Source: Elusimicrobiota bacterium | GTDB taxonomy: Bacteria; Elusimicrobiota; Elusimicrobia; UBA1565; UBA9628 | Length of the DNA: 64,000 nucleotides | Assembly (NCBI GenBank): GCA_027371715.1 | Contig: DAHXMM010000031.1 | Coordinates: 12,477-76,476, forward strand | Direction of reading: 5' to 3' | Part shown: positions 52,427 through 60,747 of the stretch, one piece after another | Layout: every line of letters starts with the position of its first letter | Position numbering within the stretch: position 1 is the stretch's first letter | Notes under the pieces: model-generated | The model's input: the letters and a program-made list of their open reading frames with translations, nothing else | The model's database searches: none | Told to the model about the DNA's origin: nothing | Made by a program: the position numbers and the translations under genes

Positions 52427-52464
52427 TAGGTCTTTTGCCGGAAATTTTCTAGGTCCTTTGGCCC
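52427..52464 (+). promoter_or_regulatory. TAGGTC-type tandem-repeat element, copy 5
   Basis: The sequence is TAGGTCTTTTGCCGGAAATTTTCTAGGTCCTTTGGCCC. Confidence 0.65.
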
Positions 52465-52487
52465 ATTTTTTCTTCCTCATTGAATGT

Positions 52488-52493
52488 TATATG
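52488..52493 (+). promoter_or_regulatory. Candidate extended -10 (TGtTATATG), 23 nt downstream of the element
   Basis: The GAATGTTATAT block is shared with 58918-58928. Confidence 0.45.
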
Positions 52494-52515
52494 TAAGGAG
52501 AGGAGGGAAAATGCT

Positions 52516-52698
52516 ATGAATCCCTTAGACCAAAATCAACATAGACGGAAACATTCGTCCAAAGTTCGTCTTGAGTGGTCAAACAGGAGAAAGTCCGTAG
52601 TGGTCATTGGTCGCCAAATGACTCTCGGTTCTTTCGACACATTAAAGGAGAGCTATCACTGGGTTATCAAGCGCGGAACTTGTTTGCTCGAGAAATAG
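52516..52698 (+). CDS. Small basic ORF (60 aa), possibly a leader/coupling ORF
   Basis: The ATG follows AGGAGGG. Its stop, TAG, overlaps the AGGAG that precedes the in-frame CTG of the next gene. No homology was recognised. Confidence 0.25.
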   Translation: MNPLDQNQHRRKHSSKVRLEWSNRRKSVVVIGRQMTLGSFDTLKESYHWVIKRGTCLLEK

Positions 52699-53753
52699 GA
52701 GCTTTCCGCCTGAAGGCGGCGGCTTTTTTATTCGGGTTATTGTTTATGACTTTGGAATTTGTTCAGGCAGGCACGGTCGCCAATCCAAATCTGGATACTG
52801 ATTTTACCAACATGATGGGTTGGATGAGCGGACAATTGGCCAACGGCCTTGGCTTTAACGCCGGAGAAACCTTCGACCCTCCCCGGGAAGTGACCAGCCG
52901 CCGCATCGAGACCGATTTATCCCTGGGTATTGGAAATATGCCGTTTAATAAGGCGCAGTTTCCCCAACTCGATTCCTCTCTTCAGACGGTCGGCGTCGAG
53001 AATTTCTTCCCCGATTCGGTGTTGTTCCCAAATCTGACCATGCATTTAAGAGCCGGGCTTCCCTGGCGATCGGATTTTGCCTTTCGCTTTGCCGATATGA
53101 CGACGCCGTCGTCTTATCGACTCTCGAATTCCTTGACCGGAAACGGGCAGTCTAATTCCATTGGAGCCACCTTGCGGAAGCATTGCTTTGGGGAAGACGG
53201 AGAGCCTCTGCTGACTTTCGCGGCGAATTATAATCACGTCTTCGGGCGTTTCGGATATGCGACTTCGTTTTCCGGGAATCTTCCCACCGTGGGAGGCTCG
53301 AACACCCCGGTCAATGAAAACGTGTCGGGCAATTTGGGATGGAACGTCAACAGCTTCGGGCTCAACGCCATCGTCAGCCAGAAATTCGGGGCTTGGATTC
53401 CTTTCGTGGGATTGGGATACAACTACGTGACGGGACTTGTCAACGCGGGAATGACGGCCGTTGACTTAAGCGGCAATTTGGGCCCTATTGAGGGGGCGGC
53501 AAACAGCGGCCCGGCGGCTAATAATGCCAGCGTTATTTTTGGCGCGCAACTGAATCGTTCCTGGGCCAATTGGTTTTTCAACGGAGAGGTCGAAGCGGCG
53601 GGGCCGGACAAGGGGCAAGCCTGGATCGCTCAAACAGGTTTTTCTCTTCCGTTTTATATAGGCCCAGGTGGGAAAAAGGCTAACTCAGACCAAAACGGTC
53701 GAAAGAACCCGCCTTTGTCTCTTGAGCCTGGAGGAGTGATTTTGTTGCAGTAG
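52575..53753 (+). CDS. Secreted beta-rich protein, putative outer-membrane channel of the glucan locus
   Basis: A signal-peptide-like KAAAFLFGLLFMTLEFVQA starts at the CTG at 52710. There are Gly/aromatic-rich alternating strands and TGFSLPF near the end. The real start is uncertain (GTG 52575 or CTG 52710). Confidence 0.55.
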   Translation: MVKQEKVRSGHWSPNDSRFFRHIKGELSLGYQARNLFAREIGAFRLKAAAFLFGLLFMTLEFVQAGTVANPNLDTDFTNMMGWMSGQLANGLGFNAGETFDPPREVTSRRIETDLSLGIGNMPFNKAQFPQLDSSLQTVGVENFFPDSVLFPNLTMHLRAGLPWRSDFAFRFADMTTPSSYRLSNSLTGNGQSNSIGATLRKHCFGEDGEPLLTFAANYNHVFGRFGYATSFSGNLPTVGGSNTPVNENVSGNLGWNVNSFGLNAIVSQKFGAWIPFVGLGYNYVTGLVNAGMTAVDLSGNLGPIEGAANSGPAANNASVIFGAQLNRSWANWFFNGEVEAAGPDKGQAWIAQTGFSLPFYIGPGGKKANSDQNGRKNPPLSLEPGGVILLQ

Positions 53754-53761
53754 GATTTGTT

Positions 53762-58845: not shown

Positions 58846-58861
58846 AACGGTCAATAAGCCC

Positions 58862-58900
58862 TTGGGCCCTTTGCCGGAAACCGCCTAGGACTTTGGACCC
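58862..58900 (+). promoter_or_regulatory. TAGGTC-type tandem-repeat element, copy 6
   Basis: The sequence is TTGGGCCCTTTGCCGGAAACCGCCTAGGACTTTGGACCC. Confidence 0.6.
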
Positions 58901-58923
58901 ATCCTCTTTGCTTGCCGGAATGT

Positions 58924-58929
58924 TATATC
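58924..58929 (+). promoter_or_regulatory. Candidate extended -10 (TGtTATATC), 23 nt downstream of the element and 9 nt upstream of the ATG
   Basis: The GAATGTTATAT block is shared with 52482-52492. Confidence 0.45.
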
Positions 58930-58938
58930 TAGGAGGAT

Positions 58939-60747
58939 ATGAGACGAGAATGCCTTCTTACGGCTTTAACGCTTCTTCTCAGCCCTCTCTCCGCTTTCTC
59001 AGGAGAAGAGAGGATGGCTCCTGAAAATCTAAATCTGGCTTCCGTTGAATTCGCGCCAATTTCTCCGGCCCTTCAAGACCTTTCTTTTCAAGCGAATTTA
59101 TCGTCCTTGGAGGATTTTTCCAAACTCCAATTCGCGCCGCCCCCGGGTCTAGTTAAGGAAGGCCTTCCGTCCGTCGACCAAGAAAACGCGAAAGAAATCA
59201 AGGGGGCGGAAAAACCCGCCTCTCCGGAAGAGAAAACCCTCAACCAAGACTTAAATCAAGAAGCCTCGGGGCCCGCTTTAAAATCCGCGCCGGCGAAATT
59301 GGCCGCTCCAAAAACCGGCATTTTCGCCTCAAGGCGGCATAAGCTTCGGATCGATTTTGACGGCGTTCGCGCAGATCACTCTCAAGACGAAGATTTAGAC
59401 GCCTGGATTTCTCAAGAAGAACGCGTGGCCTTATCACGGATGAATAAAAACATTTCGCCCCCGGGGGCGGCCAAGGGCGCGGTCGCGGCTTCTCCGTCAA
59501 GAGAAAATCCGGATTATTGGTATCACTGGGTTCGAGACGCGGGGCTGACCATGAATGCGGTCGCGGCCCTTTATCAAAACGAAGCCGATCGCTCCAAAAA
59601 ACGCGCCTATTTGCGGATGATGAAAAACTATGCGCGCTTTTCAAGGGCCAATCAGCTGACTCCCACTTTGTCGGGCCTGGGCGAGCCTAAATTCAATATG
59701 GACGGTACGGCTTTTAACGGAGCTTGGGGGCGCCCGCAAGATGACGGCCCGGCCATTCGCGCCATCGCCTTGATTCGTTTTGCCAAGGCGCTCATTTCCG
59801 AAGGGAATTGGAAATTGGCGCATAAGCTTTACGACGGCAAGCTTCCGACTTCCTCAGTCATTAAGGCGGACTTGGAGTATGCGTCTCATTTTTGGCGGCA
59901 GACCAGTTTCGACCTTTGGGAGGAAGTCCGGGGCCATCATTTTTATACGCGGATGCTCCAAAGAAAAGCCCTTTTGTCTGGAGCGGAGCTGGCCCGCATG
60001 ATGAAGGACCCCGGCGCGGCCGATTTTTACGAGGAACAGGCGGCGCTTTTAAAGCCGGAAATCGAAAAGCACTGGGATGAGGAGAAAGGGATTATCGTTC
60101 AAACCTTGGATCAGGACGCGGGCCTCAATTACAAAAAAAGCGGAATGGATTCCGGCGTTATCCTGGCGATTTTGCAGGGGGCTTTTGAAGACGGATTTTT
60201 CTCGGCGACCGACGACCGGGTTCTTTCAACCGTCGTTCAAATGGCGGAGGTTTTTAAAAACCTTTATCCTCTCAATCAAAAGGCGGACGCCCCGGGGATC
60301 GCGATTGGGAGATATCCCGAGGATCATTATTTTGGGGGAAACCCCTGGGTGATTTCAACCAATACCTTTGGCCAGTTTTATCTCCGCGCATCCCAGGATT
60401 ACGCCGCGCAAGGGTTTATAGAAGTAACCGCGCGCAATCTCGCCTTTTTTCAAGGTTTGGATTTTGCCGGAAAAGACAATCTCCGTGCTGGCCTAAGAAT
60501 TGACAACACAAACCCTCTTTTTGACTCAATATTAAACGCATTGCGCGCGGAAGGCCGCCGCTATCTGGAAACCGTGCGCCGTTACGCCAATCCCGACGGC
60601 TCGATGTCGGAGCAAATCGACAAGGAAACGGGGGCGATGATTTCCGCCCGGGATTTGACCTGGAACTATGTCAGTTTTTTAAGGGAAGCCTGCGAGGGGC
60701 GAAGTTGCCTGCTTAACCCGTTTCCCAAAAAGCCGAAAAACCCGTAA
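58939..60747 (+). CDS. Secreted GH15 glucoamylase (fungal-type) with about 150 aa of N-terminal low-complexity extension
   Basis: The motifs are NPDYWYHWVRDAG, GLGEPKFNMDGTAFNGAWGRPQDDGPAIRA, DLWEEVRGHHFYT and MSEQIDKETG. Confidence 0.85.
   Translation: MRRECLLTALTLLLSPLSAFSGEERMAPENLNLASVEFAPISPALQDLSFQANLSSLEDFSKLQFAPPPGLVKEGLPSVDQENAKEIKGAEKPASPEEKTLNQDLNQEASGPALKSAPAKLAAPKTGIFASRRHKLRIDFDGVRADHSQDEDLDAWISQEERVALSRMNKNISPPGAAKGAVAASPSRENPDYWYHWVRDAGLTMNAVAALYQNEADRSKKRAYLRMMKNYARFSRANQLTPTLSGLGEPKFNMDGTAFNGAWGRPQDDGPAIRAIALIRFAKALISEGNWKLAHKLYDGKLPTSSVIKADLEYASHFWRQTSFDLWEEVRGHHFYTRMLQRKALLSGAELARMMKDPGAADFYEEQAALLKPEIEKHWDEEKGIIVQTLDQDAGLNYKKSGMDSGVILAILQGAFEDGFFSATDDRVLSTVVQMAEVFKNLYPLNQKADAPGIAIGRYPEDHYFGGNPWVISTNTFGQFYLRASQDYAAQGFIEVTARNLAFFQGLDFAGKDNLRAGLRIDNTNPLFDSILNALRAEGRRYLETVRRYANPDGSMSEQIDKETGAMISARDLTWNYVSFLREACEGRSCLLNPFPKKPKNP

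Follow-up and report, generated by a model that had tools for sequence, protein, structure and literature searches.

The 64,000-nt stretch of DNA analysed here (the window) belongs to an uncultured Elusimicrobia bacterium and contains a cluster of genes for the breakdown of alpha-glucans. The best overall explanation of this cluster, to which we assign a probability of about 0.65, is a two-unit alpha-glucan system transcribed from promoters that lack a -35 element and belong to a class found throughout the lineage. The repeated block located upstream of both units also precedes many unrelated genes, mainly genes for exported proteins, and lies at a fixed distance from a predicted -10 hexamer. 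Moreover, the membrane half of the large glycoside hydrolase family 13 (GH13) protein of the cluster is, by sequence comparison, a homolog of MEX1, the maltose exporter of plant chloroplasts.

On the open reading frame (ORF) map, the cluster was a contiguous block of genes on the + strand, located downstream of smc and bounded by a convergent gene. Its genes were co-directional, in the order reported by an earlier, sequence-only reading of this DNA (referred to here as the initial annotation). Unit 1 was composed of a small ORF, an outer-membrane beta-barrel protein (OMP), a fusion of the GH13 module with the MEX1-like domain (GH13::MEX1), and a glucoamylase-type enzyme of family GH15 (GH15a), which was placed in the same operon as the fusion because the two genes overlap by 37 nt. 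Unit 2 was composed of a second glucoamylase-type gene (GH15b), separated from GH15a by an intergenic gap of 93 nt, and a co-directional ORF, 5 nt further downstream, that encodes only a HisKA/DHp domain and is missing from the initial annotation. Synteny of the locus was observed in five species; the order smc, OMP, GH13 fusion, GH15, GH15, DHp was retained in relatives, in which the fusion protein was 73-77% identical (related loci are designated below by L numbers).

The initial annotation described two blocks upstream of each unit, a tandem TAGGTC-type repeat and a second block ending in TA(A)GGAG, and interpreted both regions as promoter modules. The presence of both blocks in the same order was confirmed: the two regions were 74% identical when aligned, with both blocks at identical spacing, and their interpretation as promoter modules was supported. 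The first block was found to consist of two tandem copies of ~16 nt, ~23 nt apart, the distal one corresponding to TAGGNC(Y)TTTGCCGGAA and the proximal one to CTAGGNC(Y)TTTGG(N)CCCW. Between the CCCW that ends the proximal copy and a -10 hexamer of the type TAnnnT, there were exactly 22 nt. For promoter 1, the start site is predicted near 52500.

Regarding the second block, the only exact copies of GAATGTTATAT in the window were those at 52482-52492 and 58918-58928; with one mismatch, four matches were found, versus 0.53 expected. Among the 25 loci examined (~250 kb of related sequence), AATGTTATAT was confined to the two glucan promoters of each genome. Block 2 was conserved at both promoters in four to five species, and the small-ORF/OMP promoter of L029 exhibited GAATGTTATCAT at the corresponding place. 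Judged by its sequence, block 2 is mostly a putative extended -10 (TGT + TATAT) that is private to the glucan promoters. The TG extension would be needed because neither glucan hexamer has the final T; the GAA of the block is not explained by an extended -10. The part of the second block represented by GAATGTTATAT was specific to the two units, but the TA(A)GGAG part was not conserved and was replaced in L004 by CCATAGAG.

At promoter 2, TA(A)GGAG would lie no further downstream than the predicted start site. Its ATG was positioned 9 nt past the hexamer, and this distance was the same in L001, L004, and L009, which suggests that the mRNA of GH15b probably has almost no leader. This promoter also contained, over the predicted start site, an inverted repeat, ATATC-N6-GATAT (58925-58940), whose arms were kept in four species (with L001, L004, and L009) while the 6-nt spacer varied. 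The inverted repeat was absent from promoter 1 and may represent a repressor site for unit 2 only. A recent duplication of promoter 1 into promoter 2 was considered and rejected, as the spacers outside the blocks matched at only 6 of 16 positions.

Block 1 was not restricted to the glucan units. Relaxed searches detected seven modules in the window, and the products of the five non-glucan units were identified with Pfam; an additional + strand match at 62896 corresponded to the distal half of the minus-strand module at 62841-62911. When up to three mismatches were allowed, the proximal 18-mer was found four times (0.14 by chance), twice outside the locus. Of the transcription units in the window, about one in three had a module of this type. 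Other genes in the window carried ordinary TTGACA-17-TAnnnT promoters, and CCCW-22-TAnnnT was therefore considered to be a distinct class. A scan with the canonical sigma-70 consensus found no + strand promoter in 52300-61100. The sequence of the 22-nt spacer was not conserved between copies. Two other readings were rejected: a -35 at a distance of 17 nt from the hexamer, where the bases were unrelated between copies, and a sigma-54 site in TTGGCCC..., for which the GG/GC spacing fitted no copy.

To describe the distribution of the class, a strict 21-base tandem pattern (including TTTGCCGGAA but without the -10) was searched for in one genome per species (185,579 species, 596 Gb). Twenty sites were obtained, versus a chance expectation of ~0.3 by our own estimate, and all came from five metagenome-assembled genomes (MAGs), of which two bore the label Elusimicrobia and the other three just "bacterium". 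In related Elusimicrobia MAGs, block 1 was seen at about 30 promoters. In every readable match, a TAnnnT-like hexamer was present exactly 22 nt after CCCW. More generally, TAnnnT or a hexamer differing from it by one base was observed at this distance in 30 out of 33 unique element matches; the other three corresponded to a single orthologous site, the reverse reading of a minus-strand promoter. The element was always oriented towards the downstream gene, including in divergent gene pairs. The Elusimicrobia MAGs containing the class ranged from 49 to 70% GC, and its occurrences in the distant ones (62-70% GC) included the GH13::MEX1 and small-ORF/OMP promoters. Our literature search found nothing on Elusimicrobia promoters.

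Approximately 19 of the 22 distinct class promoters drove genes whose products had signal-peptide-like N-termini, as assessed by inspection and with a crude rule based on hydrophobicity. With the same rule, such products were encoded by 6 of the 7 class units in the window versus ~13 of the 44 other genes. From these sequence features, block 1 is considered to be a lineage-wide class of predicted -35-less promoters with a strong bias to exported and envelope proteins. Since many of the genes downstream of these promoters encode exported proteins, the glucan units appear to be co-members of a large envelope/secretome promoter set and not a private regulon. The initial annotation had inferred co-regulated units from the shared blocks. 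Two promoter-driven units were indeed recognized, but the tandem TAGGTC-type block, which also precedes unrelated genes, did not indicate glucan-specific co-regulation. The initial annotation had also named, as a possible refutation, generic repeats with no link to expression, and this was half borne out: the repeats were generic, but tightly linked to promoters. Co-regulation of both units by glucans is possible, and is not demonstrated by the shared repeats.

Clearly non-exported products of the class were limited to two or three, namely the orphan receiver, a product in L015, and possibly one in L023. The orphan receiver (32755-33279, 174 aa) had no output domain and appeared to be leaderless. 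After the signal peptide, many class products exhibited a short proline/serine-rich stretch, (V/I)x(I/L)P(L/V)SP (window positions 58939-59450, 53762-54540, and 22694-23000; L012, L013, L019, L024, and L025), which could serve as a shared segment for sorting or anchoring. In two divergent pairs (L014 6300-6365 and L026 7737-8001), two modules were arranged back to back, with their distal elements in common. Given its quasi-palindromic sequence (GGCC-TTT-GGCC), one copy of the element may serve both directions.

In ~10 class promoters, the ATG was located 6-7 nt past the hexamer, as would be seen with leaderless mRNAs. Start codons 6-7 nt after TAnnnT were observed at many genes of the window (20215-20241, 32743-32757, 34749-34764, 1443-1428 on the minus strand, and 63007-63022), and leaderless mRNAs seem, from the sequence, to be common in this organism. 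Compared with the ORF list, the start was revised for four genes (34729 to 34762, 32617 to 32755, 62852 to 62831, and 52575 to 52680).

The second major result concerns the membrane half of the fusion protein. Its C-terminal 344 aa matched P0029, a 426-aa plant protein of the MEX1 family carrying PF28566, with an E value of 1e-27 and 32% identity over 290 aa. PF28566 (MEX1_N) was also recorded in precomputed Pfam data on the window protein and its orthologs, and members from streptophyte algae matched the domain at ~E 1e-35 to 1e-39. The MEX1-like domain exhibited ~6-10 hydrophobic segments according to a rough hydropathy estimate, and the PDB contained no sequence relative of it.

When 1.84 billion cluster representatives were searched exhaustively, only 261 relatives of the domain were identified at E ≤ 0.001, and these formed two groups: bacterial proteins of 500-2800 aa, and other proteins of 300-460 aa. 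The named bacterial relatives were Elusimicrobia, and the named ones among the 300-460-aa proteins looked up belonged to the green lineage (Closterium, Klebsormidium, Mesotaenium, and Prasinoderma). A survey of plastid transporters published in 2007 described MEX1 as Plantae-specific, with no homologs elsewhere (PMC2246286), and our literature search found nothing relevant on bacterial MEX1 homologs or on Elusimicrobia amylolytic loci. In a crude neighbor-joining tree (midpoint-rooted, without support values), bacterial and green-lineage sequences were largely on opposite sides. This separation argues against a recent plant-to-bacterium transfer, on a tree that is not decisive.

The genomic context in distant relatives supports a functional link between the amylase and the transporter. 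In L029, a distant MAG with 62% GC, the GH13 module ended one gene and the next gene encoded a separate 575-aa MEX1-like protein (18473-20200); a small ORF and an OMP were found upstream of these two genes and a sugar-binding protein downstream. In two other distant Elusimicrobia lineages, the fusion was followed by a complete binding-protein-dependent ATP-binding cassette (ABC) importer for sugars, and in L030 the small ORF and the OMP were paired with a GH77/debranching enzyme (GDE). Plant MEX1 and the fusion share a homologous domain (~345 aa, C-terminal in the fusion) and a context of alpha-glucan breakdown, but the window domain is bacterial and fused to GH13 (or adjacent to it in L029).

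The GH13 and GH15 assignments made in the initial annotation were confirmed by Pfam, by sequence motifs, and by AlphaFold2 (AF2) and Foldseek, and signal-peptide-like N-termini were present on these enzymes, as it had stated. The two GH15 proteins are paralogs with 50% identity, and scored 262.5 bits (GH15a) and 267.4 bits (GH15b) against PF00723 in Pfam, over profile positions 16-424 of 427. Both contained the motifs DLWEE and MSEQID; by analogy with Aspergillus glucoamylase, we take the Glu of LWEE to be the catalytic acid and that of SEQ-D to be the catalytic base. The nearest solved structures of both were fungal glucoamylases (~E 1e-70), with which they share the whole catalytic domain and the WEE and SEQ-D motifs (Aspergillus 1agm and 3eqa). 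Unlike the fungal enzymes, the GH15 proteins of the locus are bacterial and have no starch-binding domain, and GH15b contains, between its signal peptide and its catalytic domain, an unrelated N-terminal extension of ~130 aa. NCBIfam models of bacterial and archaeal glucoamylases matched only weakly, both proteins being far nearer to fungal glucoamylases that consist of a catalytic domain only. Taking the GH15 and MEX1-like sequences together, eukaryote-like affinities are frequent among the genes of the locus.

The GH13 module scored 34.1 bits against PF00128 (cut-off 22), the match being limited to 76 residues (307-382). Its closest PDB entries by sequence were hydrolytic amylases, 3dhu (E 5e-13) and the maltogenic AmyB 4gkl. 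Catalytic regions I-IV, with the Asp nucleophile, the Glu acid/base, the Asp stabiliser, two His, and one Arg, were present and invariant or nearly so across 24 homologs: D368, R483-D485, E557, and H630 (full-protein numbering) were invariant, and N372, H373, and D631 were at least 90% conserved. An AF2 model of residues 250-880 was obtained with a pLDDT of 88.2 and a pTM of 0.87. In a Foldseek search of the PDB with this model, the top 50 matches were all GH13 proteins (TM-score up to 0.77 on the target); the structural neighbours comprised hydrolases and transglycosylases, including TreS and GlgE. The model and these matches agree with the TIM-barrel catalytic fold and C-terminal beta domain of the family and, together with the conserved regions, make the GH13 assignment secure. 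Homologs of the module were in some cases fused to glycogen synthase (P0026 and P0027). The N-terminal extensions of GH15b and GH13::MEX1 were not considered homologous, as they have only the hexapeptide RIDFDG in common, located in both proteins just ahead of the catalytic domain.

The OMP had been described as a secreted, beta-rich, putative outer-membrane channel, and a barrel was supported by AF2, Foldseek, and its DUF6588 homologs. The AF2 model (pLDDT 84.1) exhibited an N-terminal helix followed by 11 modelled beta-strands, and the leading Foldseek matches were outer-membrane barrels (autotransporter beta-domains, OmpT/Pla, FapF, and porins). A total of 112 homologs was found, many with PF20230 (DUF6588), for which the window protein scored 22 bits (cut-off 27); all taxon-labelled homologs were Elusimicrobia except one labelled Patescibacteria. 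The ORF listing placed the start at 52575, but the start conserved in five species, together with the residues that follow, is the TTG at 52680, and only translation from this codon yields the signal peptide MFAREIGAFRLKAAAFLFGLLFMTLEFVQA.

Table 1. Features of the alpha-glucan locus and of the promoter class in the 64,000-nt window
Feature	Positions	Strand	Remarks
Promoter 1, distal repeat TAGGTCTTTTGCCGGAA	52427-52443	+	Conserved in L001, L004, L008, and L009
Promoter 1, proximal repeat CTAGGTCCTTTGGCCCA	52449-52465	+	Ends exactly 22 nt before the -10
Promoter 1, block 2, GAATGT + TATATG	52482-52493	+	Putative extended -10 (TGn + hexamer 52488-52493)
Small ORF ("leader ORF")	52516-52698	+	60 aa, conserved small basic protein
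OMP, DUF6588-related	52680-53753	+	357 aa from TTG
GC-rich hairpin CCGCC-TGAA-GGCGG, then T-run	52706-52735	+	In OMP signal-peptide codons, 7 nt past the small-ORF stop
GH13::MEX1 fusion	53762-57433	+	1223 aa: signal peptide; N-terminal region of ~250 aa; GH13 module, residues ~255-840; linker; MEX1-like multi-transmembrane domain, residues ~880-1223 (DNA 56399-57430)
GH15a, glucoamylase-type	57397-58845	+	482 aa, signal peptide
Promoter 2, distal repeat TTGGGCCCTTTGCCGGAA	58862-58879	+	
Promoter 2, proximal repeat CTAGGACTTTGGACCCA	58885-58901	+	Ends 22 nt before the -10
Promoter 2, block 2, GAATGT + TATATC	58918-58929	+	Predicted -10 hexamer 58924-58929
GH15b, glucoamylase-type	58939-60747	+	602 aa
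HisKA/DHp-only ORF	60753-61004	+	83 aa; H-box HELRNPL; kept in L001 and L004
Class copy, TACACT	1438-1504	-	AAA ATPase with signal peptide/anchor; ATG 1430, 7 nt past the -10
Class copy, TACAAT	22655-22722	+	Membrane protein resembling the major facilitator superfamily (MFS-like); orthologous promoters in L006, L017, L020, and L021
Class copy, TATAAT	32681-32748	+	Orphan response-regulator receiver; ATG 32755, 6 nt past the -10, predicted leaderless
Class copy, TATATT	34689-34754	+	Secreted 301-aa protein, ATG 34762, 7 nt past the -10; then a glycerol-kinase-type gene
Class copy, TACAGT	62841-62911	-	Secreted 604-aa protein; degenerate proximal copy TAGGTCTTTTTTCCCCT, then 22 nt, TACAGT, 9 nt, and ATG 62831

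As to how the class is read, the simplest and most likely mechanism is that a putative DNA-binding factor binds both copies, centred near -43 and -66, and recruits polymerase in place of -35 recognition, in an arrangement that would resemble that of a class II activator. If the start site is taken 7 nt after the hexamer, the proximal element spans ~-50 to -35, with its invariant 22-nt spacing. Activator-dependent promoters without a -35 include the CRP/FNR class II sites, at -41.5, and those with the pho boxes of PhoB. A motif for a TetR-family activator has been reported in acetogens (PMC6873888). In all of these, as in Elusimicrobia, a conserved element stands in for the -35, keeps a constant distance to a -10 of the housekeeping type, and marks out a set of genes. 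The Elusimicrobia element differs from them in its sequence, its tandem 23-nt layout, and its high abundance, and its class is linked to export and spread over an entire uncultured lineage. A lineage-specific factor of this kind may switch on much of the exported-protein repertoire, often via leaderless mRNAs. We infer the start sites, the binding factor, and any co-regulation from the regularities of the promoters described above.

Alternatively, the element could be the site of an alternative or unusual sigma factor for envelope and secreted proteins, the CCCW-containing proximal copy being a displaced "-35" with a spacer of 22-24 nt. The rigid 22-nt distance to the -10 in ~30 promoters would agree with this, as would the resemblance of the core to TTGACA (TTGGCC and TTGGAC; TTGACC in L026), and the link to exported proteins recalls the regulons of extracytoplasmic-function (ECF) sigma factors. 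However, the hexamer, TAnnnT with a TGn extension in some promoters, is a housekeeping-type -10 rather than an ECF-type one, and TTGG is displaced by 1 nt with respect to it whereas the position of CCCW does not vary. In addition, we know of no sigma factor that reads a spacer of 22-25 nt, and the presence of a second, different copy 23 nt upstream is better suited to a multimeric DNA-binding protein. A sigma factor is thus considered unlikely, although it is the most serious of the alternatives.

Less probable still is that both blocks are operators of a dedicated alpha-glucan regulator, controlling a private, substrate-responsive regulon, as first suggested. This interpretation draws on the common order and spacing of the blocks, on their conservation at both promoters in four to five species, on the restriction of GAATGTTATAT, within ~250 kb of related sequence, to the two glucan promoters, and on the inverted repeat at the start of unit 2, which keeps its arms while its spacer changes. 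Block 1, however, was also found upstream of the AAA ATPase, the MFS-like protein, the orphan receiver, and two secreted proteins of unknown function in the window, and of dozens of unrelated genes in other MAGs. Moreover, an extended -10 accounts for 9 of the 11 bases of block 2, the inverted repeat is missing from promoter 1, and the locus contains no regulator gene, the sole candidate being the DHp-only fragment.

For the pathway, the best supported reading is that of a catabolic, two-unit system for the uptake of alpha-glucans or maltodextrins. The secreted or periplasmic GH15 enzymes and the membrane-tethered, periplasmic GH13 module would cut alpha-glucans and maltooligosaccharides that pass through the barrel, and the resulting product, most likely maltose, would then cross the inner membrane through the MEX1-like domain. 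As this domain lies in the inner membrane behind a periplasmic enzyme, transport is likely to be inward. We infer the substrate, the products, and the direction of transport from the gene content and this arrangement. The extracytoplasmic alpha-glucan utilisation cluster of the initial annotation was thus supported, as was its idea that the enzymes feed the fused transporter, since the fused domain is homologous to a maltose transporter.

Conversely, the locus might build or remodel an extracytoplasmic alpha-glucan, the MEX1-like domain exporting maltose and the tethered GH13 module acting as a transglycosylase. The export function of plant MEX1 (PMC2246286), the presence of TreS and GlgE among the structural neighbours of the GH13 module, and the glycogen synthase fusions of some of its homologs are in favour of this alternative. 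It is nevertheless improbable: the locus encodes two secreted GH15 exo-hydrolases, the closest sequence matches of the GH13 module (3dhu and 4gkl) are hydrolytic, the fusion in relatives precedes a binding-protein-dependent ABC importer, a type of transporter that only imports, and the OMP of L030 is paired with a degradative GH77/GDE enzyme.

Finally, the idea that the blocks are dispersed repeats (resembling repetitive extragenic palindromes or miniature inverted-repeat transposable elements) or terminator remnants without a role in expression, which could account for the many copies per genome and for the location of several just past a preceding stop codon, is contradicted by the spacing and orientation statistics and is highly improbable, as conservation between copies is restricted to the motif positions and does not extend to the 22-nt spacer, the orientation is always to the next gene (divergent pairs included), the distance to TAnnnT is fixed with an ATG often at the predicted +1, copies occupy orthologous positions in species with 40-77% protein identity, and there is no stable hairpin with a T-run.

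Several points weigh against a two-unit uptake system driven by this promoter class. The -10 hexamers and start sites are predictions drawn from sequence statistics; the hexamers TATATG and TATATC lack the usually essential final T; and a perfect AGGAGG, absent in L004, lies between the hexamer and the ATG of promoter 2, mostly outside the predicted mRNA. No reads were found on 44-64 kb in three small metatranscriptomes from the same mine-drainage study, the locus being seen in DNA runs only, and no candidate binding factor was identified for the element. Moreover, the class was described from a sample of ~30 promoters, at loci partly chosen through the motif itself, and a crude rule was used to recognize signal peptides. 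In plants, MEX1 acts in export (PMC2246286), and the specificity of the modelled GH13 module could be that of a hydrolase or of a transglycosylase, as both are among its structural neighbours.

The maltose system of E. coli consists of the LamB maltoporin, the periplasmic amylase MalS, and the MalEFGK2 importer. The two-unit system proposed here follows the same logic, in which an outer-membrane channel, a periplasmic GH13 enzyme, and an inner-membrane transporter are encoded together. In contrast to E. coli, a DUF6588-related barrel takes the place of the 18-strand maltoporin, the amylase carries a covalently fused, MEX1-like transporter, the system also includes two GH15 enzymes of the fungal type, and there is no MalT-type activator or MalT box. 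The locus also resembles the polysaccharide utilisation loci (PULs) of Bacteroidota (Sus) in its co-directional genes, its outer-membrane component, and its secreted or periplasmic amylolytic enzymes. According to Pfam, no ORF of the locus encoded a SusC-type TonB-dependent transporter or SusD, and without a SusC/SusD pair the locus is not a PUL in the strict sense. It is a system of an ordinary kind (channel, periplasmic amylase, and transporter) in an unusual form.

The small ORF, first described as a leader, was present but appeared to be more than a leader. Homologs were found in L029 (55 aa, 9831-9998) and L030 (68 aa, 9632-9838), and the ORF was always directly upstream of a DUF6588 OMP. 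Several positions (R-K-H, L, T, Y-x-W, and R-G) were invariant across distant species, and L004 had an in-frame remnant of 15 aa in which the C-terminus was retained. Because it is conserved as a protein in distant species, we consider it to be a gene for a small basic protein. Its last 19 nt overlap the start of the OMP at the TTG, which suggests translational coupling.

In seven species (the window species, L001, L004, L008, L009, L029, and L030), the OMP coding region contained a GC-rich hairpin within its first ~45 nt, in differing reading frames. The T-run that follows it (T7) was present in the close clade, in which the T-rich codons TTT and TTA were invariant, and in L029. This hairpin may be an attenuator or an element affecting mRNA stability or translation. 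Terminator-like sites were not enriched in the region (23 observed versus 18.3 expected), and no alternative antiterminator structure or regulatory codons were evident in the small-ORF leader. A structured RNA in the 5' region was rejected, as its fold was no better than that of shuffled sequences (z = -1.4).

Among the other features, the protein encoded by the DHp-only ORF had an intact H-box but no sensor or ATPase domain, and could modulate a two-component system. A stretch of 1.5 kb without a long ORF (8982-10480) contained small hydrophobic ORFs and, on the minus strand, a short pair resembling a toxin-antitoxin system; no Rfam or tRNA match was found there, nor in scans of the whole window (gathering thresholds for Rfam). 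Named homologs of the large GH13 protein were all from Elusimicrobia/Elusimicrobiota MAGs, and the DNA of the window was found in mine-drainage and sediment metagenomes.

The bacterial MEX1 family and the export-linked promoter class both deserve follow-up. For the promoters, the rule of CCCW, 22 nt, and TAnnnT can be used in these MAGs to annotate promoters, to predict leaderless genes, and to fix start codons, and the element can serve as bait for the factor that controls exported proteins. In scans of this kind, locus-specific regulation should be deduced from upstream repeats shared within a locus only once the rest of the genome has been checked. A bolder proposal, which we hold tentatively and rate somewhat below an even chance, comprises two readings: an old bacterial sister family of MEX1 in Elusimicrobia, coupled to a periplasmic amylase, and a new -35-less promoter class read by a lineage-specific factor. 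A bacterial relative of MEX1 that is fused or adjacent to GH13 provides independent genomic evidence that this family handles the products of amylases, and it opens the question of where MEX1 originated. If the sister-family reading is true, MEX1 would have had a bacterial origin or been part of an ancient exchange, and its ancestral role would have been the uptake of maltose.

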